Positions 2,429 to 26,500 of a DNA stretch of 35,860 nt are shown here, piece after piece; position 1 is the first letter of the stretch, and every line of letters starts with the position of its first letter. The position numbers and the translations under genes are program-made. The DNA is from Candidatus Omnitrophota bacterium (GTDB lineage Bacteria > Omnitrophota > Gorgyraeia > 2-02-FULL-51-18): positions 1 through 35,860 of the forward strand of contig JACQQY010000113.1 of the NCBI GenBank assembly GCA_016206825.1, read 5' to 3'. The notes beneath the pieces were generated by a model that saw nothing but the letters and a program-made list of their open reading frames with translations, made no database searches and had not been told where the DNA came from.

Positions 2429-2431
2429 GTT

Positions 2432-2448
2432 ACCTCATCCACCTCTTT
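2432..2448 (-). promoter_or_regulatory. Shine-Dalgarno candidate(s) for the gene starting at 2428
   Basis: The minus strand reads AAAGAGGTGGATGAGGTAAC-ATG, with GAGGTG 11 nt and GAGGT 3 nt upstream of the ATG. Confidence 0.6.
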
Positions 2449-2551
2449 CCCCCTCTCCTAACCTCCCCCACGAGGGGGGAGGAACTAACCCAGAAACCCA
2501 ACCATTCCCAACCACTATTCCCCTCCCTTTATGGGAGGGGCGGGGGGAGGG
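2448..2551 (+). repeat. GC-rich REP-doublet-like palindromic element, copy B, intergenic
   Basis: Two hairpin arms in inverted orientation are separated by a 32-nt A/C-rich spacer. The element fills most of the 145-nt gap between the two genes and is inverted relative to copy A. Confidence 0.88.
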
Positions 2552-2573
2552 TGATCTACCTCACTAACCCCTA

Positions 2574-5500
2574 TTAATAATGTATATCCTCCTCCGCCGC
2601 TTCTTCAAAGAGTTTGTCGATGTCCCCTTGGACAGTCTTATTCTGCATGGCGAAGGTCACTTTGCCCTGGTGGGAGGCGATCTCTTTTTGGATGCCTTCT
2701 TTCATTAAGGAAACCTTATCACCGAGCATGGCGGGCAGGACTTCCGCCAGCATGGTCTGGATAGCCGCGCGTTGAACAACCACGACCCCCTGCTCCACGG
2801 CAAAGCGGATACCTTCTCGATTCCGGTCGTGGGTGATAAACCTCATATTCTGCGGCGCGATGCCCCTTGCCTTGGTCATGTCGGTTAGGAGGTTATTGAC
2901 TTCGTCTTTGCTTTCCATCTTGGCGCTGCTGACATAGAGGACATTCCGTCCAGCGAGGGTATTTACCCTGTCGGCAATGCGGCTCAGATTATTTGCCATG
3001 TCTTGCGACTGAGACATGCCTTGATCAACCACAATGGCTTTTGGGGTGACGATATCCCCTTTATATTCTTCCCGAATGAGTCGAAGTTGTCTATTGAACT
3101 GATGGATGGCGTCTTTCGCGGCTTGCTGAGTAGGAGCGGTCGTTAATCCACTGTCCAAAGCGGCTGTCGCTTGCGCGATGGAGTGATCAACGACGGCTGT
3201 AAGAACGGCTGTTTCAACTAGAGTTTTTATCGTCTCATCAGCAATACTTTGAATCCGCCCCTCCGCCTCCTTCGTGTTGGTGATTTCACCCGTGCTCAGT
3301 GAGAAGTCAAGCACAACAGGCTTGTCCAATTCCACCATTGCCGCTGTGGCAAGGTCTTTCACTTCAAGAATAGAGATGCTTGCCAACTTACCTGTTGTAG
3401 GATCCACCTGAGAAGTAAACGTCATCATCCCATCGGCAGAAGTCACCTGAATAGCCACTCCCTTTTCCGCAAACCGCCCGGCCAAACCGAGGAAGGAGGA
3501 GGCATCAGCCACAACAACGTCTCCCACCATTTGATTGATCATCTTGAGTGCGCCCTCAACGTTCGTTTGATCAAGTCCGACGAGTATATCCGCCGGCAAA
3601 ATAACCCCCTCTTCTTCAACCGGGGCGGCAAAACCCAAAAGAAGTGTAACGGGTGTCTTAATGGAAACGGTTTCTCCCAAGTCAGTGGCGACCGTTCCTC
3701 CAAAAGTGATGGAGGTTAGGGTCCCATCTGTAACCGAAGAAGTCATCTCAAGGCCGTTAGCCATAACCAATGTGACACCGGTTCTTGTGACGCCTCCCAC
3801 TTCTCTAAGAAGATTCATGATCCCCGCCGCATCCCCGGCGCTTTGGATCTTACTGGCGGCGTTTATCAGCCTGTCCATTCCCACCGTCACCTCTTCACTG
3901 GTTCCTTCAATAGTCACAGGGGCCTTGAACGAAAAGGGCTTACCCGAAGCCGTTACGACACCGCCGGACAACGAGAGAGAAAGCTTTCCTTCCGAGAAAT
4001 TGACTGTGAGCTCAACACTATTTTTTAACAGACCCGTGACAGATACCCCCAACTCCGCCGAAACGGTTTGTAAGAGGTTAAGAGCCTGGGCGGTGTTCTC
4101 GGTCTTAGATGTTTCGACGATAGCCTGCTCTGCCTTTAATCCTGCCTCGTGGGATTTGGCGTGGAGATCACCAATCATCTTCGATTTGGTCGTATCTTTA
4201 GCAGATTTGTCGATCCAATCTCGGATGGCTTCTCGGGTATTCTGGACACTCAAATCCTGTTTTAAGTCCCTGTTCATGAGTTCATTAGCCTCGGCCATGA
4301 GGTGTTTCACCTCCACCGCCTCATGCTGGGCAAGGGCCTCTAGGGCCGCCTCCTTAGAAACTCCTTTCTCAGCCACAAGCCTTTGCGTATCGATCTCGCC
4401 AATATAAACTTTATCCTTCGTTCTCGCCGCATGGCTGAACTCTTCGCCTTTCACAACGACAATTTCCCTGCCATTCACAATCCTCCCGGTGGACTCCACG
4501 CGGCCTTCGGCATAAGCCGTTGCGATCTTCTCATTCATCTCAGCGTGAGTATACTTGTCCCCTCTTGAACCGATGCCTGCCAAAGCTTCTCGTTCCACTT
4601 TCTGCCCAACTCCTTCCACAATCCTCGCCCCCGCTTCTTTCTCAGCCCCTTCCCTTAGCACGGCCCCGGACTTCCACACATAATTTTCAAAGCCGCGGGC
4701 CAGTAACATCACAAAGAGATTACGCGTCGTTGAGCGGATGGCGGCAAAGCCTTTTTGTTCGATCACCTTATTGAAGGCAGCCCTTGCATCTTCGGCGTTC
4801 TTACTCCGCCAAACCTCGCCAAGCTTGTCGGTCACTTCCACGCCTTTTTGGGCGGCAAATTGAACGAGGCTTTCTCTTGAGAATCCTCCTGAGGTGATTT
4901 GTCTCAAATCCGTCAGAGACAATTGGCTTAGGGCTTCATCGGCCACAAAACCGGACAAGGCCGCCAAACTAAGCTCGAGATTGGCCAACTCGCCCAAACT
5001 CATCGTCGAGTTGAAGTGACTCAGGATAAGTTCCTGATTCTGAACGGACAATCCCTCCACTCCCAAGGCGTTCATAAGAACCTTCAGGTCCTCGACAGGC
5101 GTGTTGGCGGCGTTCATTCCTTGCAGTATCTGCATAGCTTCCACAATAGGCCTCATCTGACCCAGCTTCGCCATGGCGGTCTCATGACTATCTTGTTCGG
5201 TGGGTGTATTCACCGCCACCAGCGCCGCATTCACCGCCGCCGGCGAGGCGCTCCAGTTCCAATCCAGGCCCGCCATTACTCTTTCGGCCTTAGCTTCCAT
5301 AGCCTGGACACCGTCAATCTTGTTGTTGTGGCCTTCGAGAGCTTCTCTCACGAAATATTCCAAGCTCCCCTCCACGGCTTTCTCCGAACCTTCAAATTCC
5401 TTCGAACCTGTCTTCAAAATTTGCCTCATATCAGCCAGTTCTTTATTCGTCGCCCTTAGATCGGTGATGTCCAAGAAATGATGAACGTCTGCCTCCGCTC

Positions 5501-8500
5501 TTCGCTGTTGTTTTTCCACAACCACACCGACACGCTTGGCCTGCTGGATCATGGCGGAGGAGGTGTTGACATCTCCGGTAGTGTACAGCACTTTTTTGAA
5601 ATCGCTCCGCATCTTATCTGCCGTTTGAATAAAGCCGTGCTTACCCACCCCAAAGATGTTGGAACCTGTAACCAGTTCCGCAATCACATGCACTTTGCCG
5701 CCGAACTCGGTTTGTTTCTTACCTTTAACCGCTTCGCCAAACTTCCCCGCATAGACGTTCGGGTTGTCGTAAACGACAACTTCCAACACCTTGCCGCTGG
5801 TATTTCCCGCCCTATAGATCGTTACGCCCTTCCCTTTAGAAACTGAAATCTTCCCACCGGTTCCTGCAAACTCCTTGGCGGCCGCATCGGCTTTCTCATG
5901 AGCCATGTCCCGGGTCGTAGCCGCAACCACGACCAGCTCATCAGACTTCCTATCCTTCGTTGCCTGCCGGATAACGTGTTGAGACAAAAACTTCAACATA
6001 GATGCGTGGCCGTCGAAGACGTGCCATTTGCCGGTGTCGTGGAATTTGCTCGTGCCCAGATCGTAAACCGCGGCGTTCATCATCCGGAGCGTCTGCTTAG
6101 CGCCCTCGATGGTTCCGCTCAATGCAACAAAGATGTCCCTGCCTGTCACGGAACCTTTGCTTAAAACGGTAAGAGCATCAAAGATGCCCACTCCCTTGGC
6201 GCTTGAAGTGCTGAATGAATTGTAAGCTCTCTTTATATTTGCGCCGGCACGAAAAGCAGCGGCAATAGCCTTGAAAGGATCTCCCAGGTGAGTCTTCTCC
6301 ATGGTTTGCCCGGCAAGGTCCTTCAAATCCACTCTCCCGCCCTTGCCGGTTGAGATTCCGCCTGCTTGTCCAACCTTGGTCGTAAGAATATCAACGGCTC
6401 GACTGACATAAGTTTTTAACAAGGTCTCTGCCATTTCCCGTCCGCCCAATTGGGTGATGAGCGCCGCGTTCTCTGGGGACAGTATCTTTTGAATCAAATT
6501 CTCAGCGGCGGGCTTATCCATCTGCATTTCCCGATTGGCGTCATATCCAAAAAGCTCTCTGTTTGTCCTGAACAATTCTCTTATTTGTCCCGATGTTTTC
6601 TCCAAAAGCCTGGTAAACGCATTGGCTGTTGGCTTATCGGTTTTATCCAGCTTCGTGTAGGCATCTTGCAGCGCCCCCATTGTCAGACGAGTGGTTTGGA
6701 AAACGGCTTCCGCTTCATCCACGGTAACCAGGGAGAACCCTTCGAGAAGCTTCTCGTTTGTGTGTTTGATTTCTAAAAGCGTTCTTGCGTCCAAGACAAA
6801 AACCCCGCCTTTATCCCCCTTGGCGGACATCTGGCCGGCATTTTCAATCACATGAATCCCGCTCCCATTCTCCATTAAAAATTTCTCAAGGGCGGCGTAG
6901 GTTTTATTGTTGGTATTTGAATCCTTGTTAACGTTCTGAGGGGTATCCATCAAAATCATCAGTTTCGTGGATCCGATGTCTCTGCCTTTCGCTTTCGCAT
7001 AGAGCAAGAACGCCAATTGCAAGGTCCAAATGGGAATAGTCTTTCCACCGCCTGCAGGGACAGCGATCATTAACATTCCACCAGGACCGGAGGCCAAACC
7101 GGCGTTTGAGAGAGCATAAAGCAAGCCGGAAGCCAGGGCCTTACGCTGATCGCCGCCAAGAGGATTTTCACCCTCTTGCCTGCCTCGCTCTATCGCTTGT
7201 CTCATGGCGGAAACGACTTCGCCCAACGGTCCTTGAAGCGCTTTCCCTGTCTCCACGGCCTCCGCAATCTCATTCACCTGATTTTCAACTTCCCTTTCCA
7301 TTTGACGATACTTCTCCGCCTGCCGGCTTACTTTTTCCGGCGTGATGGACTGGGCCAATTCACTGGTGCCTGTTCTGGCAAGTGTTCTCTCGGTAAAGCT
7401 GAAATCCTTCATCGTATTTTCCATAACGGCCGCCCTTCCATCGCGAGAAAGCTTGCTCAAAACATCTCCTGACTTTGCATCCACTCTTGTCTCATAGACC
7501 CTTATGTACAACTTCCCCAATTCAATCTTATAGAGCAGTGTTTCCCTGCCTAACTCTGTTTTCTCAACCTCGGTAAGGTTGGTCTTGCCCAATTCCTTCG
7601 CCTTTGCCTCACCCGCTTGAAGGGCAATTTGATTCATCCTGGCTCCGTCTCCCTGAGTTATATCGCTCAATCGCGCTTGTGCCTCTTGATGAATTCCTTG
7701 AGCGGCCTGCTTGACTAATGGAGATTCTCTCAACCTTTGTTCTCTAAGCGCCCTCCGCTCGGCGATTCCCTGCTGCAGTTTCCCGGCAGGAGACCACGCC
7801 TGCGGCATCATGAAAAGACCGATCCAGCCCAAGGCACCGATTTCAGACTGGGACAGCCCTGCGCCTTCCTCTTTCAAACCCTTCGGCGGGGCGGCATAGG
7901 TCAACAAAGCATGCAGACCCGTCACAAATCCTGCCATTTGAACGTTGCCCACATACCACCATCCACTCGTTAATTGCTTCACCAGGCTCTGCTGGGCTTC
8001 TCTCCCAGCCGTAGGCGATCCTAATATTCTCACCATCGGTCCCATCCAGAGACCTTGCATCGGACCTTGGATCATACCGGTCACCAAAGTATTTAAAGTA
8101 ATCTTCTGTCCGCCCGCCTCAAATCTTCCGGCAACGAGCCATGTCCAGCCTCCTTCCGCCAGAGTAAACAAGGGCGATACCACAATCCACTCCACACCCC
8201 CCCTGGCGCTTGCCATAAAGAGTGGATTGTTAATGGCAAAGCGCTGTATAGAGGTCATAGGAGCAAGCCCCGCCCGCACTCTCATGACATTCAATCTCTC
8301 AAAAGAAATCCCGCCCCCTCTCAAAACACGGTCGAGCTTTCCTGCCTGATTAAAGCTCCAAACCCGATGACCAATGGTTTGAGCATGACTGATGCCGATC
8401 GCAGAACCCCCGTATCCGGCAACCAACCCCCAAACAAAACCCTGCCCAAAGCTTCTCCCAATGTCCACCCAGTTACGAACGTTTCCACGGAGGAAGTAAT

Positions 8501-11500
8501 CGATCGCCACGTTGCCAACACCAACGACTGCCGCGCCTCCGACGTACTGGGCGCCCACCTTGAGTCTCGGAACCCCTGTAGCCAATCCGCTTCCCCATTT
8601 TAACGCCAAACCAAACCCAAATCCCTTCAAGAAAGTATCCCAACCCACCTTTTCAAAAAGCCCCTTGCCTTGAAGAAGATTAGACCCAACCTGCCAGCCA
8701 ATATTCCCGAACGCTCCCAAAAATCCCATCGTGGCATAACCCGTCAACGGATTGGCAAAGACACTCCCAACTCCCTTCGTTCCCAAAAGACCCTTTTCAA
8801 AGCTGAGGATGGTTTTGCCCGTTGCCGTAACCAACTTAAACCCATTCAGAATCCCATTCGCAACGGCGAATCCGCCCTGCAAGGAGGCTCCCCAGAAGCC
8901 GTTGTTAATCGCTCCGCCTATCGCCTGAGCCCAGTTGATTTCCTTGCCCTGATACCAAGACATCCCAACGTTGGTTCCCAGGGAAATGCCGCCCCACAAT
9001 TCTGCCCAAAGCAACGTTGCCGTTCCACCTGTCAAAGCGACACTGACGACAATGCCCGTGATGCCTATAACAGCCTTTGTCTGCAGCCACAAACCGGAAT
9101 CCGTAAAGAGACTCTCGCCCCCTGCCGCATGAAACCACCATTTGTCGTATAAGCTTTGCGCCAAATAAGCTTCCCTGCCGGATTGTACCTCGAAGGATCT
9201 CGTCAATCCCTTTAAGGCGCCGGGAGCGGTTTTCTCCATAGCCACCAGCTTATTGACGAGATCTTCTCCCTTCAAATCCCAGAGACTCGACCGATTCGAC
9301 AAATCTTCAACCACGAAGCGATTGAAACTATCCTGCATGAGATAGTCGCCGGCCGAAGGCAGATCGATCGACGCGACGATCCTCTCCGCTTGATGCTGAA
9401 GCGACAATTCCCGCATGGTCGCTTCGACGGCGTTAAACCTTCCGCTCTCCAACTCGTACGTAAACTGGTCAAACAACGTTTTCATCTGGGTTGACTTGTC
9501 GCCCTTATAGTCGCTTTCCACTTTTTGTCCATAAATTTCATGGGCTTTGGATACGGCGAGAAGCCCCATCTCCCCGCGCCTAATATCCAAAACCTCCGGA
9601 CCCACGCGCTGGATGGATTGCACATCGGTATAAACAAACTGCCCGCTCCCCGTGACTTCCGAATTGCCAACACGCAGAGTCTGAACCTGTTCACCCACAT
9701 CGAATGTCTGATTGGCCAAAGCCGCAAAGCGGCCCTCACGAATCGAAATACTCCCCTCGCCAAAAAATTGCTTGCCGTCTTTGTCTTTTACCACCTGGAT
9801 GGAAAAATCCTCGACCAACCCTTTCTTTTCACCGCCAGGCGCGCCCATCTCCTTCCAGCCCTGGACCCTGTCTCCCATTTCCAGAAGAACGTAACCTCTG
9901 TTATGCAACGCACCGGACTTCAAGAACAACGAATCTTTCCCAAGCTCCACCTCGTTCGTCGTGAGCGTGACCCCTCTCTCCAAATCAAGCTTGCTTCCCT
10001 GAACGTTGAAGAAACCCCCTTGAGTCAACGTAAGCGCTAAAACCCCGGAAACGGTAAATTGCTTGCCGCCTGCGGTGAAGATCATTGGCTTATCGCCCAT
10101 TTCCAACCGGAGTTGAAGCAAACCATCCTCGCCTTTCGCTAAAGCGGCCGTCCGACCAAACAAGACCGCGGTAAGCTTCTGATCGCCCAGTTCCTTCCCA
10201 TCAAACCCAAAAATTTTCGTTAGAGGCTGTTTACCGGTGAGATCCGTGACCTGCTTGGCCAAGAAAGTCCCCTTATCGTCGAACAAACTGGAAGAAACGT
10301 TCCTTGCCTTTCCATCCTTCCCAAAAATGGTATCCGAAACGTTATGGCCGTCGATGACGGACGAAATAGAAACCCCTTTCGATTCGTATGCCAAGCGCAG
10401 GGTCGTGTCAACGGTTCCGGCGTATTCTCTCAAGGTTGATTTCAAAGATTCTATCCCGGAAGCTTGGAGGACGAGATTCTGAAGACCCTGCGCAACAGGA
10501 ACCTTATCCAAATCCAACCGGCTGACGTCCGCCGAAAGCCCGATTTTTTGTCCGTCCTTCAGCAAAGCGGGCATCGAAAAAATGACGACCAGATTCGCAT
10601 CCACGGAAAGAACTCCGTTCCCAAAACCCCAGGAGATCTTCTGGATCCGCTCGCTTTTGTAGCTGTCCAATACCCCATGGGTGAATTCTCCTTTAGGACT
10701 CCACATCCCTTTCATGGCCTGCTTCATCTGCTCGGCAGTCAGATCCTTCCCCAACACGTCGCGGACATCGGAAGCGATGGAAATAGCCGGGTTCGTGTTG
10801 TCTTTTTCAAACATAATGTCCACCGACGCCTGGCGGATCGTCTCACCAACCCTTTGCCCAACAACCATATTCGTGACACCCGCCGGTGTGTAGGACCCTA
10901 CCTTTCCCTTTGAAACTTCCAAGTCCGCGCCCTGCCCTATACCCATAAACTCGGCCCACCAGACTCCCCTCAAAGGACCGCCGGAATAGTTTGCCCTGTG
11001 TCCTTTTAAATCCTGCGCTTCGCCTTGGGTAATCATATAAGTGGTGAATGAATCCTTATTCCCCAGGGTAAACTCCACACTGCCGACACCTGACAGCTTC
11101 AGAAATTTCCCTTCTTCAACCTCAAGCCCTCCAATGGAAACCTCCCCGCCTCCTCTGTGTGCCTCATAGCTGTAGAGCATCGTCGTGCCGGGGATCACGC
11201 GCAGCTTATACCCATCGGTCAAAACATCCGTCAAAGACTGCAGCGCCTCCGATTCGCTTCCGACTCGACCCTGCAGGAAACCGATCAGGGTTCGCGCATT
11301 CTCCTCTGAAATCGGAGCCAAGGCATCCGCTTTTGTCTTAAACAGAACTCTTATAGGCTTGTCGGCTCCAAGAGTTTGATTCACGGCTTTGATGCCCGCT
11401 ATTTCGGCTTCTTTACCCGCCATTACATTGATCACAAAGCTCTTCGTCTCAAATTGAACGCCAAATCCCATGGCGCTGACCTTTTGAGCAGCTTCTTTAT

Positions 11501-14500
11501 AATTGTCATCTGTGGCGCCGCCTGCGATTTTTCCTATTGCCGCCATTTGGGTCAGTTTGGCTTCATCAACCTTTCCATCCTTGCCGAGAAGCTGTACGGA
11601 TTTCCCGTCCTTATCCCGTATCGGCACAAAGAAATCAAGCGGCTGGCCGCCGCTTCCGACAGCCTTCTGGGCCATAACCGAGATCGATTCGAGTTGCCGG
11701 TCCTTCATGACAAACTGAAGGATTGTCCCCTCGACAGTTTCAAACGAAGCGGTGAAGCTGGGAACGCTCAACATGGCCAGAAGGACGTCGCCAGGTTTGG
11801 AAACCTTGGAAGCGCGCAGGACGTCCGCAAAAACCGGAACGGAATTCTTCAAGGAATTGAGCGCCCCAATATCCAACCGTTCGCCCTCGCCGAACAACCT
11901 ATCCATCCCTCCGACAAGGCGCGCAAAAGTCATCGCATCGACTTCCTTGCCAAGCCCTAAAAGCTGGAAGGCTCCGTTCAGCTCTGCGCGGAAGTCCATG
12001 ACGGCCTTGGCATTACCAGGAACTGCCAACATGCCGTTTATCCTCGCAGAGAAGCTGTCCATTTTCGTGTGATCCAAGAGCAAATAACCGTTCGCATCTT
12101 TTACAAAATTGCCGGCCTTATCCCTCTTCAAAAACTCCGTCATGCCGCCGGTGGATACCAGAGAAACAAGCTGTGAAAGACCGACCCCCTGCGCGGACGG
12201 ATCAGCCGATTTCGCAAAATCATCGATGGCCTTCTGTAAACCATCCAGATCCCTATCCACTTTTACGTTGACAGGAACGGCGGAGACGACGCCTCCAAGA
12301 GTAAAGTCCGAGGCGGTCTTGCCGATGACAATCTCAATCCCGCCCCCCGTGGTCCGGTTCACGGTAAGGCCGCTTAAATCCTTCAAAGGCACAACAAGCT
12401 CAAAGAGTTTCGTAACGTTCTCGACGTTGTGATTCAAAATCCCCAGGTCCGCCAAATAGACGGCATCTGTCCCGGCCTTCTTCTCCGCCCGCCCCAGCTC
12501 TCCCTTCATCCCGGAGGCAAACGCCGCCGCTTCTTTCAAATATTCCTTCGCCCTCCCAAGGTCCTTCGCCTCAAGCGCGCTGACGGCCTGGTCATACAAA
12601 TAATTCACTGTGCCCCCGGTTCTCTTCTGCTGTTCGACGATGAGCACCGCCTCCGCCGAGAAACCGCGGACGTCAAATTTGCCGCCGACCCACTGACCCT
12701 CCCTGCCCCACAGCTTCGTGAAGGAACCGGCGCCCTCAAGCTTCGCTGTCCCGCTCGCATCGACCATCAGAAACTTAACGGTAACGCCATCCAACGTTCG
12801 CCCTTCTCCCAAGGCCTGCGAATATCTTTCAAATAAACTCTGCTTAAGATCGCCGCGAACGCTGAGTTCAATAAACTCCTTAGTGCCTCGATCGATCAAA
12901 GCCACGTGGGGTTCTTGCAATCCATCCACATACACCACATCCCATTGGAGCCCAAAGCTGCCCGCGATTCTCGCCGCCAAGGCATGGGTGCCAACACAAT
13001 TCAAGCCTTCCGATTCCCTGTCCAAACCGCCGGGCTTCAACGCAATATTTTGCAGGATGAGAGTCTTGATGAAATTACCCATTTCCGCTTTGCCAATGTC
13101 GGTTCGAAGACGGGCGACGTCTGTATCCTTGCTTTCATCAATCCTTTTGGCAAGAGCCTGCCACGGATCAGCGCTCTTTATCTCCGTATCCGTCATGGAA
13201 AGGATCGCCTTTTGGATGGAGGGCGGGACCCCGTCTGGAGTCTTACCGTCTTTTAGTTGAGCGTGGAGAGCCGCCAATACTTCATTCATGGTGCTCCCAA
13301 GCTTTGCAAGCTCGGACGGCAAAGACCTAAGACCAAAAGGAACGGCGGCTGAAAGAATGCGCCCTTCGGCGTCAAACCTAAAGGTTCCCCGCGTCTCGGC
13401 AATGGTCCCGCTCACGGCGATGTGATCAACGGCAATTCCTAAGGTTTTCGCCATATCGAGGATGGCGGTTTGTGCCGCATTGGCATCCGGGAAGTCCTTG
13501 GCAACTTCCACGTCCGTCAACCGCCCTTGAGGATCAAAAGCGAAAACAGCCCTCGTTTCCGGACCAAAGGTGCCTTCCACAACGACGGGGCCGTTGGCGT
13601 CCTTTCTGCTCACGAACGCCAAGAAAAGCTGGGTCGCATCCACCATCACCTGTTTATCCAAAGGCATGCCCTGATTGGAAGTTCCGAGCGCCTTGAATAA
13701 ATTCTCAAAAGATCCCGATGAAGCCGCCTCACCCATGCCAAGATAAATCGCTCCTCTTGCGCTGGAATCCTTGGCGCCCAGTAAAATGCTGAAAAGCTCC
13801 GTCGCGCCGATCTGAACCTTTTGACCAAGACGGGCGTTAACGGCGCCTATCTTGCTTAAGGCGCCGATAAAGCTCTTATCTTCGCCCAAGGTGATTTGAT
13901 CAATTTTGCCGTAAATCTCTAACCTTGCCGAGGCATCCTTGGCGCCGAGGAGCTTAATAAAGAGTTCCGTGCCGCCTAACTCAACTTGGTCCGTGCGGCC
14001 TGCAGCTTTCAACGCATTATTGAGAGATTCAATCCGTTCCAAACTATGACCGAATCGCATAGACTCTGTCTTGATCTCCCCAATCTTGGAGTAAATCTCT
14101 TTCCTTTCACCGGCATTTTTCATCCCAAGCAGAATAGTCAACAGTTCTGTTGCGCCGATCTTGATCTGGCCGTGAGTTGCTTGAATGTCACGGAGAGAAG
14201 AAGCAAATTGAGAGCTTTCGGTGGTGGTAATCTCGGTGAGCCTTGTATAGATATCTCTTCGCGCATCGCCATCCTTAGCGCCTAAGAGGAAGATAAAGAA
14301 TTCCGTGGCCCCAATCTTGATAGTGTCTTTGATGCCCGCTTTGGCGATAAGAACGTTGAGAGTTTGGATATCTTCGAACGCAGTCACAAAATTCTGTTCT
14401 TTGAATAAAACTTCCCCAAACGCAATTTGTGAGATCCTGCCGTAGAGTTCTTGCCTTGCATCACCATTCTTCATGCCTAAAAGGGCGGTGAAGAGCTCCG

Positions 14501-17500
14501 TCGCTCCAAATTTGACTTGGTCCTTGATGCCGGCGTTGGCAAGCTGAGAATTCAAGGTTTGGATGTGGCTTGAAGAATCGACTATTTGATTCTTCTCAGT
14601 GGTCGTAATCCACCTAATATTGGTGTACACAGTCCCCCTTACACCAGCATCTTTCGCGCCTAATAAGAGGATGAACAATCCGGTGGCATCCATTTGGACC
14701 TGATCCTTGATACCTGCCTTGACAAGGTCAGCGTTGAGGTCTTGGATGCCGCGCAAGGAAGCTTCGAACTCGTTCTTTTCGTTTGTGGTAATCTCGCTAA
14801 TCTTCTGGTAGAGAGCCTGTCTTGCCTCACCGCCTTCCGCTCGGATGAGAAGACCCAGTAGTTCCGCTTCTCCCATTTTCACTTTATCCTCAATGCCAGC
14901 GGCCGTAAGCCTGCCGTTCAATTGGCCGATGCCAGCCAAAGCCTTGTCGACTTGTTGGCTTTCATTCGTGAGGGCTTGGACAAGCGCCTGGAGCTTGCTC
15001 GTCTCAAAACTTCCCATGATCCTTCCGGTGGCCGTCTCCATCACCACCGTAAACTCCGTCGCGCTGACAGGGACGTTGAAGATGACGCTCGCCAGGCTTC
15101 GCAGGAACGCCTGCTGGGCGGGGTCGGTCGTGGTTCCATAATTTACGCGCATGGCCTGCGAAACAAACCCTTCTCTCACAAACTTCTCTTCCCCACCCGC
15201 CTCGTCGAGGCTCACCACGAGAGCCTGTTGGGCGTTGGCCGCCGCGCCAAAGACGCCCTGCTTGGTCACAAGGATTTGTTGGCCTTCCCTAAGGATACGG
15301 CCTTCTTGAGGGAGGACGTTCAGGAGCTCCTTCGTGACTCCCATGGCCACTCCCATTTTCACGCCTTCCTCATTTTGGATGATTTGAATAGTGTCTGCCA
15401 GCAAACTTGGAGGAACGGGAAGCTCTACTCCCATGAGGTTGACGATAAAGCCCTTGAAGAAGGCCGCGGCTTCGGCGGTTACTCCTTTAAACTGGAACCG
15501 CAGGCCTTGCGCCGTTCCCAATTCGCCGCCGGCGAGCGTAAAGCGCTCTCGTCCGCCGCTGAAAAGTCCACTGCCCAGAGCCGCCGGAGGCGCGCCGCCC
15601 AGCCCGCCCTGCAGGCGATAAAGCTCGACTCCCTGTTCTCCGGCTTTCACGAAAATTTCCTGGCCTTCCGCGAGACCCGTTTGCTTCGCCAAGCGGTTAT
15701 CGATGCTGAACGTGAAACCGACCTGCTCGCCGAACCGGTTCAAGCCCTGCTGGAATTTACCCGACAAAATGGCCAAGGCCGAGAGACCCGTGAAGGAGCC
15801 CACGAGACCGGCGACGGCGAGCTTCGTGCTCTCATCGAGATCCGCGGCAAACTCCACCAGATAATTCCTGGCCAGATCCACTCCGAGATTCTTTACAGCC
15901 TCATTCTTAATGGCTTCCACGCCTTGGTCTTTGATGGCAAGAAGGCGGTTATTCTGCGCATCGAAGGCTTGGATGAGTCCCCCCTCCTGCTGAATGAAGA
16001 TTTCCTCTCCGGCTTTCACGTTACCGGCCTTTACCAAAAACCCAATCTGCCCTCCGGCCTGATTCGTAACCACTCCAAAGCCGATGGGCGCCGCAAACAA
16101 TCTCTGCGCGAGGAGCTTATAAGAAGCTTCCTGCTCCGGCGTCACCCCTTTTTGGAAAATCCGAAGCTGAGCTTCGCTCACGGTTCCTTTCACCCCTGCT
16201 CTTTCAAAAGCCCGCCGAACCTCTTGGATTTCAAAAAGCGCTTTGCCTCCCTCACTGAGCACTCTTTGCCTTTCCACGTCCACGAGAACAATCTGGCCCT
16301 TGTAGGCCCCCGTCGTGAAGCGCTCAACCTCCCCTTTTAGGTTGGTGAAGGCCGTCAGATTGGAAAGAATCTGCCCTTGGGCGTTGTAAGCCCGCAAAGT
16401 GGAGCTAAGGCCGGATAAGCTCCTCAAAACGTTCAAGGTGGCCGCATCCAGTCCGCTCTTCTCCCCTTCCTTGGTAACCGCGGCGACGACACCGCGAAGC
16501 ACGGCGATTCCCTGCGCGTTTCCTTTCACTTTTTCCTCATGAAACTCCGGAGCAATCAGCGGGGTGCCCTTGGCGTTCTCAATCTCCCCGGTTCGATCAT
16601 TGCGGAAGAAAGCCTGTCCCGAAACGAGAAGAAGAGACTGAATGCCAGGCTGAAGGCTGATCGCCACGGGCTGAAGTTGATTCGCCGTTGCAAACGAACC
16701 CAAAAGACCGGACAACTTCTCACGATCCAGCACGCTCTCCAAGCTCCCGCGCAAGGACAATTGACCATTAATCCTAAGCGAAAAACCGCCGCCCTCCCCA
16801 AGGAGAAAAAGCGCTTCAGAACCCTTCGCGGTACGAAAAGCCCTGCCGAGAATCTGCTCACCCTGAACCGCGCCCGTCTTATCCGTCACCACGCGGCCGC
16901 CTTGATCTACCCTGCCGCCCACAAGCTCAACGTCGAAGACATCCCTGCCTTCTTTGTCCGTTGTCGGAAAATGCCGCAGGCCCACGACCAGTTTTCCCAT
17001 AAACTCAAAGGCCACCCGTATCTGCCGCCCGGCCCGCAATTTTACCTCTATCGTTTCTCCTCCTCTGCTTTTCAACTCCGCATCCAAGACTTGAGACGTC
17101 AACCTATACCGGTCTTCTTTTTTCTCCACAAGGGTACGGCGGCGGCTCGTCGTACGCCCTTCTTTATCTTGAGTAAGCTCAAGCAGAGCAAAACCTTCCT
17201 TCGACCTGAAACCTAAAATCGCGGTCCCCGCTTCGGGGGCTTCCCTCCCCTGCCTTAGAGCTTCTTTCACCTCTTTATCGCTGACGACATGAACGGAAAA
17301 TTCGACGATCTCCCCCTTTAACCCTTCCACCGCCTTCAGCCCCTCCGTCTCCGCGATGATCCGCTTGGCGATGTCGGAGAACTGGACGGCCTTCGCCAAG
17401 AAGAGGGCCCTGCCAAGATCCTTGGTTCCCATCAAGCCTTCGATGAAACTCTTCGAAGCCCTGAAGCTCTTGGACGTGACAAGGCTGTAATTGTCCTGGA

Positions 17501-20500
17501 GCCACTTCCATTGCTTGCCGATACTTTGGGATTTGCTCTCCAAGTCTTCCATGGTGATATCGAAGGTTTCTTGATAAGTCTGCTCAGCGGCGCCCCTCTT
17601 TTTGGCATCCTGGTTCTCGAGGCTTCCCACCATGAGCTTTTCGATTTCCTCCACTATTTTCTTCATCGTATCGGAGTAAGTATCAGGACCTATCAAATCC
17701 TTCGGAGAAATGCTGCTATCTCCAATTTGGATAGGACCTGCGACGGAAGGATCACTGCCGGAAAGAATCTTCGTGAGCCTCGCGCCCTCATCCGCCGTTT
17801 GGGCCACCGGCCGAATGAGATCATAAAAGATGCCTTTTTGGAGCGGTTTGGGTTGGCGCTTAGGCGCGGCCGCCGCTCGAACGGTAGCGTCAAACCTTTT
17901 GGTTGTGAGCTTTCGGATGACGTTGCCCTGGCGGTCCTTGAAGGTCGTGGTCGTTTCAAGAACGCCTCCTTTCATGGGATCTTTCGGATCCACGAGGCTC
18001 GTTTTTTGCTCTATTTCCTCCTGCCCGCCCGACAGGAAAAGGGCGGCGCGTTCGGCGACAATATGCTTTTCGACAATGGCGTTATCCTTGGCTTGCTCAA
18101 GCCGCTTGAGAAGGGCTTCGTGGGTTTTCTCTATTTCTTCCTTTTGCCTTTTGGAGTTGTCTTCGACCGCTTTTCTCTGTTCGGCCAGCCTCGCCAAAGA
18201 GGCTCTTGCGCTCCCGGTGCCCTGGCCATAGGCCTCGTTCAGCACCTCCTTTGCACGATTGACGATCGTCTTGAGCGCCGGAACAAGACCCGTCGTATCC
18301 ACGGCGTTGGCTGCTTTCCAAAGATTCTCAAGCTGCTCCAGACCTTTTTCCAACACAGTAATCAGAACGGTGTTAAATTTCTTGACCCCCTGAAGGTCGA
18401 TGAGCTCCGTCACAACCGACGCCAGTTCCCATCCCCACTGGTATTGCTTCATCACGGCTTCGTACGAGCGGAAGAAGGTCCGCAGCATGGGAACAAGCTG
18501 CTGCGCGAGCAGACCGCGCACAATCTCCGCTTCCTGCCCATTAAGATCTTGAAGCGCCTTGCCTTTTGCCTCTTCCGTCTCGGAGAGCATCTTGTCTTTC
18601 AACTGGTCAAGCTCCTGCTTGCGCCGCTCGAACCTTTTCTCCTCCGCTTCCACCAAACCATTCAAAATCTGCGCAATCGTCTCCGGAAGAGCCCCCAGCA
18701 CGGGGTCATAAAACTCCTCAAGCCGCCTGAACAACTTGAGGTTCAATTGAGCATACCGATCGCCTATTTCTCCTTTGGCTCTTAACTCCTCAATCGTCAC
18801 CTGATCCTGGGCGGAAACTTTCGCGTACGTCGCCGAAGGATCGGTTGCCGTCCTATGAAGAATCCGATTTGAAGTGCCCAGCCCAAGCGGATCGCTGGAC
18901 AAAAGGTCAAAAAGGGCTTTCTCCTTTTCATCCTCCGAATTGTACACGACGACGTTGAAGCCTTTATTCTTGGAATAAAAATCGAGCCAGTACGCCGAAT
19001 TGGGGTATTGGGGCAGTTTGGCGTTAGGATCCTGATCGGTGTAACTGCCAATAAACGGTTTGGCGGTTCCCAGCAACCCACCGATATAGGACTTATAGGC
19101 CTGTGTGGAGTTCCAGGAGCTCCAATAAGGAGTTCCTGAAGAAGAATTCAGGTAAACGACCCCCGGGAAATCAGACCCCTTGTATCCATTTAAAGACGCT
19201 CCAAATTCTCCTCTGAGCGAGGCATCTGCAGTTTCACCCCACTTTATGCCCGTTCCTCCTCCCACGTCGCTGTAGGCTTTCCAGCTAAGAGACAATATTT
19301 TCCCATCGCCAAGATCCTCCGTGGAACCCTGCCGCGGCTGGCCGGTGTAATAAGGGGCGTAGGTGTTTACAAAGTCCTCTTGCGCCGATGTCATGTATTC
19401 ATAAAAAGTACTCGTCACCCATAAGGGGAAAATCGGCGCTTGCCAATCCGCAATCCCACCGGGGTACCCGCCATACGCCGGAACAGTGGGGTAGTAATCG
19501 ACCGTATCGATTAACCGATTCATAACGTATTGATTTCCGGCTACGTACTGCTCGACGATGCCGGACAATGCTTGGGGAAGTCCGGAGTCGTAAGAGGGGT
19601 ACGTGGCGCCCGTGATGGCGCCCGGCGAAAAAACGAGCCCTAACGTTTTAGTTCCCAAATCGCCGATATCCCCTCCAAAGGAAGGATTAAGAGCCCCGTG
19701 GTAGATGCCTCCGCCCGGACGGTGCTGATCGTCCCCCGTCCACGAAGAAGGCTCATCGAAGAGATAATCAAGAATATGACTTTGATAAGACTCCTTATCG
19801 ACCCGGCCCAGGTAATCAGGTGGGCCAAGCTTATTCACAAACGGCATGTTGTCGGGATCAAGGGTCTTTAATACTTCATCGATCGAAAAGGATAAGAATG
19901 CCCGATCCAAATCCCGGCCCAGCCAATCCGGCATCTCCTTGAAATCCGTTTTACTGCCGGTGCCTTCTTCGGTTAAAAGCCCTGCCGAACCAAGAGACCC
20001 GTCTCCTACTTTCTTCTCTGCCTCGAGACGCTCCTTCACTTCCGCCGCGTTTTTGGCCACTTCATACACCGTTTTCGACATCTCTTCTCCCAGCTCTTCA
20101 AGGCCCTCCCGCGTATCCTTTTGAATCTCATAGCTCTTTGAAAGCTCACCGGAGGAAGCGTCAACGATGCCTTTATAAGCCTCCGCGATAGTCTGGAAAA
20201 CCTCCGAAACGTCCGGCAATCCCTGCGCGATGGCCTCGACGTACTTCTTGACAGGTTCAACGTCGAAGTTAAGCTTGTACTTCACGGTAAGGGTTCCATC
20301 CGCTGACTCCGAGCTGACGGTCGCCTTTGCCCAATCCACAAGGGCAGCATCCTCGAACGTGCTTTCGGCCGCTTTAAATTGTTGAAACCTCTCTTTGATT
20401 GTGCCCACGGCCTCGGACCATTTCCTTCTGATCTCGCTCATTTGCTCGGTTATTTTCTCCTTCACGCTCCGTAAGGAGAGAAGGGTGTAAGCCACCGTGG

Positions 20501-23500
20501 CTCTTACGGATTCCCGCAACGCTTCAAGAAATCCTTTCGGACCTAAAAACTTATCCAGTTCTTTGATGGACCGATCCAAGGAAGCTTTGACGGCTGTTGA
20601 GACGTCCTCCGGCAAAAGATCCACAAAACCCGCGCCCAAAACTTCCTGCAGGTTCTCCTTGGCCGACCGGGCTCTCTCAAGCTGGCGGTCCACCTCTTCA
20701 TCCCACCACGAACGAGTAACCGCTCCCGGCACAAAAACATCATCCTCGCTGTAGCCGCCCTGCGCCCGTTGCCACCACGGGTCGTTTTCAAAACCTGCCC
20801 CGCCAAAGAAAGAATCCATGTAGTACCGGTTCGTGAGGTAAGGGGAAGATCTGGGGCCCTCCTCACGGCTTTGCTTAATGGGGCCTTCAAATCCCTCTAT
20901 TTTGCCAATCCCCTCCACCACGAGATCCTCCGGACCGATAAAAAGGCCGCGCAACGCCTCGTCCCGCCCTTCCATCTCTTTCTCCAATTTTGTCTGCGCT
21001 CTTTGAAGGTTCTTTAGACTGTCAGACTCCGTGTCGTCCACGGCGTCCAAAATATTCAACCATAAATCATCCCAATTCCCATTGTAGCTGTCACTGTAGG
21101 CGTGGCGGGCGGCTTTCCAATGCCTGCGGTAACTTCCTCCCAGATTTGTCAGGAAATCAGTCCCCGTAAGGTTGTAACCGATGCCAGCAGCCCTGGCGAC
21201 CATCTCATCGATCTTGGGTTGGAGATAACCTGCGCCTGCGGAACTCGTGCCGGAGGAATCCGTGATGGAACCGAAAGCTTGAAACACAAAGGTATCGTTC
21301 CACCTGCCCTTAAACGCATCCAGCATGGCACCGCTCTTATTCTTGAAATTTTCAAGAGCCGCGTTGGCCGTCTTGAAAAGCTCTCCCTTTTGGAGTTGGC
21401 TTGCCATCGCGGTCACGTAGCTCTTGCTGAGCTCTTTAAACTGCGTCCAAGAATCCGCCAGGTTTTTGCCGCTTGCTTCGTTAAATTTCCTCAGCTCGTT
21501 CTTGAAGCCGTCCTTGAAGTTGTTCAGAAGGGCCCACTTTCCATCCACGGCCAGTTTCTTCACGTAGAAGTAATCGTTCAAAGCGGCGTTCATTTCCCGC
21601 AAAGCGCTTTGGATGCCGCCCTGCCAGACGGGGTATTTCTTGTCCAGCTTGAGATTGAGCGCATTGATGAAGTCGGAAAGCTCAGTCCCGCGGATCTGCC
21701 GGAGAAGGCCGTTATCGAGAATAAAACCGTAACGCGCCTCCCAGAAGGATGCAATCTTTCCGGAAGGATCGTACTCGATAACCGCCGTCGCGTCGGCCGA
21801 GCTTTCCAAATCCACGCCGACGGCATACTTGGCGAGAAGCTCCCTGCTCTCCTTGGTGTAAACCGTCACGCGGATACTCCCATCTTCCAAATATTCGATT
21901 TTCTTATCGAAATTCTCGAAGGATCCCTTCCCGCCTCCCCCGCCCCCTCCTTCTAGATTCTCAATGGCATACAAGAGCCGACCCGTCGTGTCACCCAACA
22001 CCTTCGGATTCCGGCCGTAAAACGTTCTTCTCGTCCACTCTCCAACCTCATTCACCGTCTCGGCCATCATCGTGATCTCTTCCTGCTTCACCGTAGAAGG
22101 ATCACGCCCCGTCCAACGGACTCTCTTCCCGGTGGCCGGGTCCGTCGTAAACCCGTATTTCTCCGCCTCTCCGCTTGAAATAAAGGCATGGAACCACCTG
22201 CCGCCGGAGCCGAGAACCGCTTTGGCCTGATCAACCGTAAGCTCGGCGCCGGTTACGGGCTTTGAAGCCGCCAAAATGTTCCCATCCCAAATCCCGGTGA
22301 AATAGCTTCTCGTGCTCGTCTTCAACTGCCCTTCTTCCAGGAGAGTGACGACATCGTCATCGCTTATCTCCTTCACCACGACATAGTGGTCCGGCCCGAT
22401 GTGAGCGATGACGGGATTGCCGGCCTGGACGAACCGCTTCAGCTCATCAAAATCCACCCGATAGCCAAAGAAGCTCTTCTGAGTTTCAGCCTCCGCCGCT
22501 TCTTTCATCGCCTGAAGCGAAATAGTAAGATCCCCTGTCGTCGTCTCCGAGATAACCCCGCTTTGAATGTCTTTGGTGATTGCCTGAACGGCCGTCGACA
22601 CCAGGTTCGGAATCAAGCCGTTTGCGCCGTTGATCAAAAGGGATAAGGCGCCAAAGGCGCTGGCGCCGAAGTGCTTCGATTGATTTTTAAGCCAGGTGAG
22701 AATGCCCTGAACCATGCTCTCGGTAAGAGCCCCTCCGCTCAACCACGTCTGGTACTGCGTAACGTAATCGGCGCCGAAGTATTGTGAATACTCATCGGGA
22801 TTGTTGATAAAAAGCGTGATGTAGTACACGAAGGAGCCTTCCCCCTCGGTTTGAGGGGTCGCCTCGCCTTTCAAAAGCCTTTTGCCTTGCTCCGGATCGA
22901 CCTGAAAGTAATACAGGTATTCCCTAACCCAATTCGGAGCGGGCGCCGGCTGACCAAACGGAAGACCGATCCGTTCGGTAAGCCACTTCTCCACCCCGCT
23001 GATAATCGCCTCCCTCGTCGCCGCATCGAGCGTCTGTTCCCCGCCAAAGACAAGACTGCCTGAAAGGGCTATATCCTTTCCTTCGGGAATCCTGGCAATG
23101 AAGTGGAGACTCGGATCGTCCACAATTTCCTGGGCAAGATCTCCTAAAGTAAGAGACTTCGGATCGAGCGGATCTGTTTCCTTCATCAAGCGCGTCGTCT
23201 CGCCCAAAAGAACCTTCACTCCGCCGACGGTGACAAAAGGCGCCGCCGAACCGAAGAAATCAATGGGTTTGGTTTCGGGAATCACACGAGCGCTTACCAC
23301 CACTTGACTGGCCACCCACCTTCCTTCAACCTTCTCAGCCGTGATATCCACCAACACCAGCGGCTTTTTCTCCGTAAGGGTGATTCTCGTGGCAACGCCG
23401 TTCTCCGCCGTGACCTTGGCATAGATTTCATTTCCCAGAAGGGCGCTGTCTTCAAAAAAGCGGGCAAAACCCTCTTGGCTGACCGCCGAACCGTCCAGAC

Positions 23501-26500
23501 CTGTGATCTGAGTATCCGCCGTCACCTGGTACGTCACCCCTTTTACGGTGATGGTCTCAAGGGACATCCGGCCGTCTGCGTCCTTGCCCGTTTCAAGGGT
23601 GTTCACCAAGTAATCCGGATTGTTATGGAGCCAGTCATAAAGTTCCTGAAGGGTAAGAATTGTTTCGCCTCCCGTCTTGACAATGGCACGCGACAGGTCG
23701 ACGGCTTCACCCTTCACCTGAAGGGACTGCCCAGCAGCATCGAGGCTCTGAAGCTTTCCGTTAAAGCGCTCAAAGAAGGTCGTCGTCAGCTCTATTTTTT
23801 CCACCTCCCATGGACGAGTACGAGAAAGAGCGGCCTTGGCATAAGTAGGGATTCCATTCGCCGCGTTCTTCGCAAAAAGACGCTTCATCTCTTCCCAAGT
23901 CAAGATGACCCCCAAAGAATCTTTAATGACAAGCGAAGAGGAACGTGTGACCGAAACGCCCCCTAGGGTCAAAGCGTCAGCAACCGTATCTAATCCTGCC
24001 ACTCCACGGATCAACTGAGGCTGGGCCGTTGAAAGCTGAACCTCTCTGTTGTCATGGCGGGAACGAAGCTGAAGTTCCAGCGCCTTCCAACCGGTATCGG
24101 TTTCAATCAACTTGACTCTGGCGTTTGTCTCAAGTGACAGCTCCGAGTCAAGGAAAAGGGTGTTCGAAACCTGCTCAGCCGTCAGGAGAGAGCCGGCCGG
24201 ATCCGTCATCTTAAACCCATTGGCTAATGGATACTCCACCCCTCCCACTTTGACCTTGCCGCCAACTACATCCACTGCGTCCAGATTGTGACTTTCCGAC
24301 CGGGTATGCAAAGACTCCGTTAACACGTCGATGGTTTGAGCTTCGTATGTTCCATCCCGCAACATCATCCCGGTGACGTTGACAAGCGTCGGAATGGAAC
24401 GTGCTTGATTTTCGGAGCGAATTTGCTCAAGCCGTGCCCCGCCGATCGCAGCGCCCAAGCTGTCCCTGATAACCGCGGATGAAGTGACGGTGAAATCCAC
24501 GCCATTGATCCGAATCGAACGAAGCTCACCGTTGACGAGCGTGGCGCTTTGAAGCTCATCTTTCATTTGCGTCTTACCCGAAATATCCGCGGCGACTTTG
24601 ATGGTCTTGGCAACCGCTTGGCCGGAAACCATCTCAAAATGAACGTCAAAATAAAGCCCGGAGCTTCGATTCATCAGGGTTCGAAGCTGCTGGGCGCTTA
24701 CAAGGGTGAGATTCGCGTCAAAAATGGCGGTGGAACTATTGACAACGGCGGTGACGCCGTTCACCGTGACGGCGCCAGCGCTTGGATCCTGGGCATCCCA
24801 GGAAAAAGCGATCTCCTCCGGCTTCACCCCCGTCCAAGAGCGTCCTTCCGGAATCAAAACGCCCTCCGCTCCAAGACTCATGGCATCCGCGCGCCAGAGA
24901 ACGGAACGGACCTCATTTTGAACGAAGGCATCCGTTGAAACAAACCCATCGGGCAATCCGGCGGCCGGTTTTTCCAGATGATAAGCGGCATCGGCTGGAA
25001 TTACTTCGACGTCATCAAAGAAGGCCGGCGCCCCTAAGTTGGAAGTACCGAGCGCGATCTCGCCGACGCTATAGGCGGCATTCGTCACATTGAGAAACTG
25101 GGCGGTATTGCCATCCAAATAGACTCGGATATTGTCCCCGTTGGCGTCTACTTTCAAGGTGTGCCACGCTGAAGGATCAAAACCGGAGAGGGACGTAAAA
25201 CCCAACTGATTGCCCAGATTGCCGCTTTTCACTTCATAGAGCAGGAGATAAATTCCGCTTTCACTGCTTGTGCCCACGCGAACGGCATACCCGTCATTGC
25301 GGCTGTTCAATCGGAAATAAAGCTGGAGGTACTCATATAAGTTCCTCTTAAACTTGAACTTGGTTTGAATCGTGCCGTTCACGATCGTCTTACCGTCCAA
25401 GAAGGACAAATGGTCACCACCTAAGGTGGACTGGCGGTAAGCCATGTTCCCCGTTCCATCATCCACCACCTCCCAATTGCCTCCGTCAATTCTGGGGGTG
25501 AAGGGAACTGCGGTGGGCTTGGGGGAAAAGCTCTCGCTCCAATAAATTTCTTTTGCCGGAGCGGGACTGCCCTGTAGTGTTCCATCTTTCCCGTTGCCGG
25601 ACAAATCCTTACCGGTGCCGTCGTCGAAAGAATAATAAGCCAAAAGCCCTTCCTCATTCCCCTGGAGCTTGGTATTCATAACGCTTTGGATCTGAGAGGT
25701 TGTGAGGGCTTGGCCAAAGACGGCCGCTTCATCGATCGTGCCCATGGCACGGCCATAACTTAATTGTCCTTCTCCCCCTATCGCCGCCAGATCCTTTGTG
25801 ACCTGACGATTGAGAAGATTACCAACGGGATTTCCATCCATATAGAACTGAGTCTTTCCCCCGGAACCAACCGCCGCTACATGATGCCAGCCGCTTGACA
25901 AAGAACGAACGGAGTAGCCGCTGTCGACGGCGTTGTAAGGATAATAGGTATAACCGTTCATCGAATCCAAAATCGCCAGCGTCCCATCGGACCTCACCAC
26001 AAAGTGAGAATCGGAAGGTCCGCTGGAGCTTCTGAAGAGCGCGTTGTAAGAATAAGAGCTCTCAAGAGCGGGAAGCGGAAACTTCACCCATGCCATGATC
26101 GTCCGGTCGCCGTTCATGTTGATGGGCGGGATTGTCATCGTATCGGCCGTCGACGCGAACCGCATGGCATCGCTGTAGATTGCCACTTTTTTGATCAGGA
26201 CTTCATCCAGCCAAGCGTTGCCGTTCGCCGCAGCGGTGTCCGTCGTCTGTGTCCGGTCGTAAACCCACCGCAAGGTGTATTTGCCCTTCGGCAGATTCAG
26301 CGTGCTCCTCAGCCAACCATTGCTTGCCCCGGCAATCGATGCCGCTTCCTTCTCGTCGATGTAAAGTTTGAGAGCATCAGTCGCCTGCGAATCGATTCTC
26401 CAACTAAACTCCAACATGCCGGCGTCATCGAGCTCCGTCGTGGTTTGAAAAAAGGAACTCTGACCGCCTCTTGTGGCTCCCGCCTGCGCGGCAAAACCAC

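Follow-up and report, generated by a model that had tools for sequence, protein, structure and literature searches.

The window examined here is the whole contig JACQQY010000113.1 (C93; 35,860 nucleotides) of the 1.29 Mb, 84% complete assembly GCA_016206825.1 of a Candidatus Omnitrophota bacterium. It is filled nearly entirely by a single open frame of 11,094 residues on the reverse strand (2574..35858 (-), stop codon 2574-2576), in which a Gly-rich, charge-poor module was found to be followed, behind a hydrophilic linker, by a two-lobed ATPase whose predicted fold and language-model features resemble SecA. The best explanation, which we favour with modest confidence, is that an ATPase on the SecA plan is tethered to a presumed membrane module and would serve giant proteins as a dedicated motor for handling polypeptides. 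Because the window is the whole contig, the frame is open at its 5' end, which lies beyond the contig; residues are numbered from the codon beginning at 35858, and all coding features given below lie on the same (-) strand. The analysis followed up a first-pass annotation of 5460-9080 (residues 8927-10133), in which a SecA-like ATPase had been placed just C-terminal to a Gly-rich membrane bundle and the pair had been read either as a translocation motor with a channel of its own attached in cis or as a nucleotide-binding switch that has lost hydrolysis.

Active-site motifs and their conservation

The ATPase piece spans residues 9545-10200 (5259..7226), and the superfamily 2 (SF2) motifs I, II, III, V and VI were all located in it in the order claimed by the first-pass annotation, as Walker A, DEAE, SGT, TGSN and QQAKR. 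Walker A (motif I) is AGGGKT at residues 9602-9607 (7038..7055), the codon of Lys 9606 lying at 7041-7043 exactly as given before, and Walker B (motif II) is DEAE at residues 9714-9717 (6708..6719). Motif III is LSGT at residues 9913-9916 (6111..6122), and the second lobe contains LVTGSN (residues 10062-10067; 5658-5675), QQAKRVG (residues 10105-10111; 5526-5546) and, within QQRRA, R10120 (5499-5501). The distance from DEAE to SGT was counted as 196 residues, close to the 200 first estimated; in the SecA encoded elsewhere in the same genome it is 170 residues, and the corresponding distances from Walker A to Walker B are 112 and 104 residues. In DEAD-box helicases, motifs II and III stand only about 30 residues apart, and XPD and DinG also carry an inserted domain, the Arch domain, at this position.

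Conservation was counted in an alignment of 25 non-redundant family members, whose columns were scored in 22-23 relatives; a second alignment, A1, comprised 11 ATPase sequences that are 25-32% identical. In Walker A, G9605 and K9606 are kept in 22 of 22 relatives, and in Walker B D9714 and E9715 in 23 of 23, the fourth residue of motif II being Glu in 17 of 23. Motif III keeps G9915 in 22/23 and T9916 in 23/23 relatives, N10067, Q10105, R10109 and R10120 are each present in all 23, and D10182, in the helix after lobe 2, is kept in 22/22. The earlier observation that QQAKRVG lacks the second Arg of SecA holds within the heptad, but a second Arg, R10120, stands 11 residues past R10109 and is invariant (23/23). 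Unlike canonical SecA, the domain has a motif V without the Arg of AGRGTD and a motif VI split by an insertion.

These departures would speak for a degenerate nucleotide-binding switch without ATP hydrolysis, for which one could cite a motif II that reads DEAE and not DEVD or DEAD, TGSN in place of the AGRGTD of the genome's own SecA, and the one Arg of QQAKRVG against three in the QLRGRSGRQG of SecA. Such a switch is highly improbable, since the Walker A Lys (22/22) and the Asp-Glu pair, Q10105, R10109 and R10120 (23/23 each) are invariant across relatives only 25-32% identical; the suggestion of lost hydrolysis was therefore dropped. The conservation has the pattern of an active site under selection, and the ATPase is predicted to be catalytically intact.

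Predicted fold and structural comparison

The ATPase was modelled with AlphaFold2 from A1, at a predicted local distance difference test score (pLDDT) of 85.5 and a predicted template modelling score (pTM) of 0.82. With its motif residues invariant in the relatives and the piece folding at these values, the motif set is more than chance. In a Foldseek search of the Protein Data Bank (PDB), all rows listed at ranks 1-24 were SecA or SecA2 (E 1.3e-12 to 1.5e-7), the best match being 6itc_A (E 1.3e-12, template modelling score 0.54, about 700 columns). The first match outside SecA was DinG at rank 25 (E 1.5e-7), followed by DEAD-box and RIG-I-like helicases; the E-value of the best SecA is thus about 5 orders of magnitude better than that of DinG.

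Structural alignment with VIA-align gave Z scores of 22.6-20.2 for SecA, the best (22.6) with 390 residues aligned at a root-mean-square deviation of 3.5. For the SecY-bound SecA chains 6itc_A and 3dl8_A, alignments of 513 (Z 22.5) and 507 (Z 19.7) of the 661 model residues were obtained, the one with 6itc_A pairing model residues 3-660 with chain residues 55-607. Identity to SecA in the structural alignments was about 10-13%. With the same program, DinG (Z 20.0, 348 aligned), DbpA (Z 19.6, 333 aligned) and DEAD-box proteins (about 19-19.6) were aligned over about 330-365 residues, which correspond to the two RecA lobes only, and about 150-180 further model residues were aligned to SecA alone. 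A Foldseek-independent search of 48,161 chains also placed the SecA motor first (Z 19.9), with FANCM at 18.9 (344 aligned). Among ESM-Atlas clusters, the best named one was SecA_DEAD/SecA_PP_bind (score 0.91, 186 shared features, recognition 2691), and SecA_DEAD was carried by 8 of the 9 rows shown.

Domain names are those customary for SecA, with approximate residue ranges of the B. subtilis protein. As in canonical SecA and SecA2, the model has a first lobe with an inserted domain, a second lobe and a long helix, and motif order and spacing are similar. The insert between motifs II and III (about 190 residues, 9724-9912; 6123..6689) is of mixed alpha/beta secondary structure in the model and is read as a counterpart of the SecA cross-linking domain. 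It is followed by the second RecA-like lobe, similar to nucleotide-binding domain 2 of SecA (residues 9917-10165; 5364..6110), and by a long helix (residues 10166-10199; 5262..5363; model residues 627-660), whose counterpart in the alignment is the beginning of the SecA helical scaffold; in 6itc_A the match extends to chain residue 607. The domain would accordingly carry an inserted domain at the cross-linking-domain position and a scaffold-like helix after lobe 2, a reading that we keep below certainty because the Z margins over other SF2 enzymes are small and the comparison covered the ATPase piece as a whole.

An ordinary SF2 nucleic-acid helicase or translocase of the DinG/XPD, FANCM or DEAD-box kind, sitting in a giant protein and having an Arch-like accessory domain as its insert, would share the two RecA-like lobes and motifs I, II, III, V and VI, and SF2 helicases were matched at Z 16-20. 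In particular, DinG (Z 20.0, 348 aligned), FANCM (18.9, 344) and DbpA (19.6) come within 1-3 Z units of SecA, and the matches of the motor model in a viral structure library were generic helicases. On the other hand, the rows listed at Foldseek ranks 1-24 are all SecA, 507-513 residues are aligned by SecA alone while helicases end at about 365, and the Atlas features favour SecA clusters. SF2 helicases also differ from the domain in its 196-residue gap between motifs II and III, in the 150-180 residues aligned to SecA alone and in its tether to a presumed membrane module, which accompanies it throughout as a conserved, charge-poor neighbour in giant surface-type proteins. The claim that the ATPase is SecA-like and not an ordinary helicase is thus supported, on the basis of the predicted fold, where SecA was the best match and helicases were aligned over fewer residues, and of the language-model features; by sequence methods it was not recovered, as described below.

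The glycine-rich module and the linker

The Gly-rich, charge-poor and presumably membrane-embedded module comprises residues 8929-9359 (7782..9074), with a core at residues 9059-9383 (7710-8684) that is conserved by homology. Residues 8900-9360 contain 18.2% Gly against 10.3% in the whole protein, and nine charge-free stretches of 17-36 residues each lie between 8929 and 9359. The Gly-rich part of the first description thus stands; the membrane bundle is less certain, as a mean Kyte-Doolittle value above 1.4 is reached by only two segments, 8922-8954 and 9101-9119, and the AlphaFold2 model of the module from 8 sequences, although all-helical, is unreliable (pLDDT 48.6), so it was not used for a fold search. 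Likewise, the ATPase is C-terminal to the module but not directly so, being separated from it by a linker, hydrophilic and roughly 185 residues long (9360-9544; 7227..7781), whose sole family match in Pfam and NCBIfam was a non-significant one to PepSY (E=0.07). Together, the cassette is about 1,300 residues long, of which the soluble ATPase makes up about 650.

The membrane piece had no significant match in Pfam or NCBIfam, and comparison of alignment A2 with 17 SecY sequences from relatives by hhalign gave a probability of 0.1%. Its nearest ESM-Atlas clusters consist of Bacillota proteins without a name, about 180 residues in length (0.93, with a recognition of only 1667), followed by the pre-toxin families DUF637 (0.87) and PT-TG (0.86), which are composition leads at best. 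A complex prediction that combined residues 30-661 of A1, for the motor, with residues 170-490 of A2, for the module core, scored 0.18 (mark 0.32), was run without controls and is evidence in neither direction.

A homologous module was found upstream of the motor in 7 of the 10 relatives with fetched DNA and in five further database proteins (P0005, P0006, P0007, P0011 and P0012; E 5e-85 to 2e-16), in each case 150-500 residues N-terminal to the motor. It was found in none of six stretches (1,100-1,200 residues) upstream of SecA domains of giant proteins that are visible to Pfam. Since the module is paired with this motor and absent upstream of the six Pfam-visible domains, the two form one conserved unit that is distinct from the published type.

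Relatives and distribution

A HMMER scan of 1.84 billion representative proteins returned 14 relatives of the ATPase piece (E 6e-61 to 9e-10), 12 of them proteins of 2,162-7,655 residues and 2 fragments. The motor family is rare: it was present in 10 of 61 close-relative genomes and, in a sample of 401 genomes from the same class, in 11. The matches lie in open frames of 997-11,094 residues, and full-length matches in frames of at least 2,063. Pfam-visible SecA_DEAD domains (53-160 bits) occur inside other giant frames of the relatives, and two genomes, G014 and G041, each carry both the cryptic motor and a Pfam-visible SecA_DEAD in different giant frames in addition to a normal SecA: G014:C8 (3,086 residues) with G014:C4 (11,243 residues), and G041:C4 with G041:C17.

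One complete relative, in genome G020 (G020:C1:1526000-1545000, frame 4668-15794 (-)), is 3,709 residues long and has zero Pfam families. It starts with tandem repeats of about 60 residues, has no obvious signal peptide, and its motor (2251-3085) is flanked by long low-charge regions (800-2000 and 3100-3709).

Sequence-based searches and points against the SecA assignment

The following results weigh against the SecA-plan explanation. The ATPase piece had no significant Pfam or NCBIfam match; SecA_DEAD (PF07517), SecA_PP_bind (PF01043) and SecA_SW (PF07516) gave no match for the protein pieces at E<=1 or E<=10, and SecA_DEAD, DEAD and ResIII matched none of 11 family members at E<=1. A scan of the genome for PF07517 at E<=10 gave C113 (432 bits), which encodes the normal SecA, and C95 (19 bits), and nothing on the contig of the motor, and PF01043 at the same threshold matched the canonical SecA alone. 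A search of PDB sequences with phmmer returned 0 matches at E<=10, and the best match of the A1 profile to PDB sequences, the Walker A of XPB/Rad25 at E=0.21, is noise. With hhalign, A1 reached probabilities of 4.8% against 23 canonical SecA sequences, 1.5% against 8 SecA domains of the giant type and, with the SecA of the same genome, 0.75%. In the positive control, giant-type SecA domains compared with canonical SecA reached 100% (E=1e-75), so the test works. The comparison with SecA_DEAD, SecA_PP_bind, DEAD and ResIII models by which the first-pass annotation would have been checked thus matched none of them, and hhalign stayed below 5% for SecA.

An alternative hhalign alignment was in register and colinear with SecA, pairing the Walker B/stem, the GxxM..GD/TGRxM..DGL region, SGT/MTGTA, TGSN/AGRGTD and QQAKR...RRA/QLRGR..GRQG; its probability was only 1.2%, so it was not counted as evidence. 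Scored against a SecA preprotein cross-linking domain (PPXD) alignment, the insert profile did not outdo block-shuffled columns: in global and in local mode alike, 5 of 40 shuffles reached its score, and other SecA windows scored as high against the insert as the cross-linking domain did.

On the structural side, the Z margin over other SF2 enzymes is small (22.6 against 20.0 in VIA-align), and the 19.9 against 18.9 for FANCM is counted as a tie by the Foldseek-independent search; most of the structural signal would therefore be the shared RecA core. The wing domain and the two-helix finger of SecA were not found, with no SecA_SW match by Pfam in the last 3,208 residues, and residues beyond 10200 lie outside the fold model. 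Membrane insertion of the module is read from its Gly-rich, charge-poor composition. Finally, the motor follows the presumably exported 8,900 residues and is hence translated last, which does not easily suit a role in exporting its own chain.

The absence of a SecA link in sequence searches, and an XPB/Rad25 Walker A (E=0.21) as the sole PDB profile hint, also count in favour of an ordinary helicase. The helicase families fare no better, however: DEAD, Helicase_C and ResIII matched 0 of 11 members at E<=1, and the gap between motifs II and III is, at 196 residues, unlike theirs. Taken with the structural comparison, an ordinary helicase is distinctly unlikely. We read the domain as one that has probably diverged beyond recognition as SecA by sequence, as modelled from its fold.

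Comparison with known systems

Giant proteins of tiny predatory bacteria are already known to have this general arrangement. West-Roberts et al. (2023; bioRxiv 10.1101/2023.11.21.568195) report that most giant Omnitrophota proteins have divergent SecA_DEAD and preprotein-binding domains without scaffold or wing, that the SecA-related domains come after transmembrane anchors close to the C-terminus, and that the same genomes have normal Sec genes, self-export being given as a likely role. A 2026 Omnitrophota preprint (10.64898/2026.06.07.730766) includes, among long proteins, a cluster of 20 with a PF07517 architecture. With these SecA-related domains and this cluster published, the general kind is already known.

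The protein of the window resembles the type of West-Roberts et al. in several respects. Both are giant surface-type proteins of small-genome bacteria, neither has a scaffold or wing domain in Pfam, and the genome has normal SecA and SecY genes at other loci (here 432 bits, on contig C113, and 377 bits). In both, a near-C-terminal ATPase (here 9545-10200) follows the presumed membrane region (here the charge-poor module 8929-9359), and the C39-like and DUF1080-type domains of the window's protein recall the class named 'Dockerin-type'. The difference is that the domains of West-Roberts et al. were found by the Pfam models SecA_DEAD and SecA_PP_bind, to both of which the window's motor is invisible. 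Compared directly, the Pfam-visible giant-type domains match canonical SecA at 100% by hhalign and are unrelated to the motor (1.5%), and the Gly-rich module accompanies the motor but 0 of 6 of them. Canonical SecA differs further from the motor in its sequence (about 10-13% identity, no HMM or profile match), in having a wing domain, two-helix finger and C-terminal zinc tail, which were not detected in the motor with Pfam, and in being soluble where the motor is covalently tethered to a presumed membrane module.

Proposed role

In the explanation that we favour, residues 9545-10200 would form a very diverged ATPase of two RecA-like lobes, with a domain of about 190 residues inserted in lobe 1 and a scaffold-like helix after lobe 2. 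The ATPase would be cytoplasmic, because it needs ATP, and the linker of about 185 residues would tether it to the charge-poor module embedded in the membrane, while most of the 8,900 upstream residues, with their lectin-like and adhesin-like domains, would probably be extracellular. The cassette would help to export or assemble giant proteins, i.e. its own chain or a giant protein encoded by a neighbouring gene, and would work alongside ordinary SecA and SecYEG. As the motor is made last, it may act on other copies or on the product of the next gene.

The same fold and ATP hydrolysis could instead serve a membrane-anchored mechano-chemical or regulatory unit that translocates no protein and that pulls on, remodels or gates the giant protein or its module, or controls processing. 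Conservation of both the catalytic residues and the cassette would suit such a unit equally, as would the failure to detect the wing domain and the two-helix finger, used by SecA on SecY, the low-charge regions on both sides of the G020 motor, as if the motor were a loop on the cytoplasmic side of a large membrane machine, and the translation of the motor after the part that needs export. We regard it as unlikely, since translocases account for all of the closest matches by structure and by features, the published reading for related giant proteins favours export, and positive evidence for any specific alternative activity is absent.

A more far-reaching proposal is that module and cryptic motor form a self-contained, SecYEG-independent translocon on the tail of the giant protein, through which giant proteins would be threaded, including the next in the operon. 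We give it a small chance. The coupling in cis proposed by the first-pass annotation is borne out as a conserved pair of module and motor, but the channel is not, the hhalign probability of the module against SecY being 0.1% and the pLDDT of its model 48.6.

Other features of the giant frame

The N-terminal 7,900 residues contain, by Pfam, four Laminin_G_3 domains, a 3keto-disac_hyd domain (DUF1080-type), a DUF5666 domain and a borderline C39-like peptidase, and the last 3,208 residues contain zero Pfam families. The C39-like match (Peptidase_C39, residues 4447-4533; 22260-22520) has E=1.5e-4 and 22.0 bits, exactly at the cut-off, and about 100 residues beyond it a run of at least 6 glycines begins at residue 4637 (residues 4637-4643; 21930-21950). 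C-terminal to the ATPase, the last 894 residues (2577..5258) matched no Pfam family, and homology with the relatives stops at about residue 10260-10360.

Four repeats of about 76 residues with RRSSTFF lie at the truncated N-terminal end (residues 31-266; 35061-35768); by eye they resemble YD/RHS-type repeats, and no Pfam family matched them at E<=0.01. Five repeats of about 55-65 residues with a GATELF-type motif (residues 7118-7357; 13788-14507) gave no family match, and Tandem Repeats Finder returned no DNA tandem repeats in the window. Strongly hydrophobic segments were seen far upstream of the Gly-rich module, at residues 6679-6700 (Kyte-Doolittle 2.0; 15759-15824) and 8414-8434 (1.8; 10557-10619). 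The giant protein may therefore span the membrane more than once, and its N-terminal part is not necessarily all outside.

The downstream gene and a dispersed repeat

Downstream of the giant gene, a second gene on the same strand (2-2428 (-)) has a signal-anchor-like start 145 bp past the giant gene and encodes 809 residues before it runs off the contig. It had no match in Pfam, NCBIfam or PDB sequences. Roughly the first 530 residues make up a conserved head module that occurs in multiple copies in giant open frames as long as 14,048 residues. All 10 relatives searched contain it, with 5-24 matches in each genome, and it occurs at 17 places in the genome of the window. The best copies of the head module (38-46% identical) closely follow, in the same orientation, a giant gene that bears the cassette in G014, G020, G033, G358 and G080, which are five of 10 other genomes. 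The head module also starts frames with a Pfam-visible SecA_DEAD (G041:C17 and G014:C4).

A G+C-rich element of about 110 nt with two hairpins was observed in the intergenic gap 2429-2573 (at 2447-2554) and again, as its reverse complement, inside the downstream gene (563-674; 40 nt at 98% and 43 nt at 84%), so placed that the two copies bracket the head module. A 38-nt hairpin unit of this element is dispersed in the genome, with 15 matches on 10 contigs including both copies in the window, and several copies lie directly after other head-module copies (C91, C80). The element looks like a repetitive extragenic palindromic (REP)-like repeat or a recombination site.

Significance

On how bacteria with genomes of 1-2 Mb export and anchor proteins of at least 10,000 residues, the published clue is the SecA-related domain that Pfam detects in 'most' giant proteins. 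What is new here is a Pfam-invisible family with a specific membrane partner and a fully conserved active site, although members of it may already stand among the structure-only annotations of earlier papers. Its compact cassette lends itself to expression, ATPase assays and structure determination. Because the family is invisible to sequence methods, surveys based on Pfam would under-count such motors. If the SecA-plan reading holds, it would be a second family of giant-protein motors, on the same structural plan and locked to a module of its own, and there would be at least two lineages of SecA-like ATPases borne by giant proteins, sometimes within one genome.

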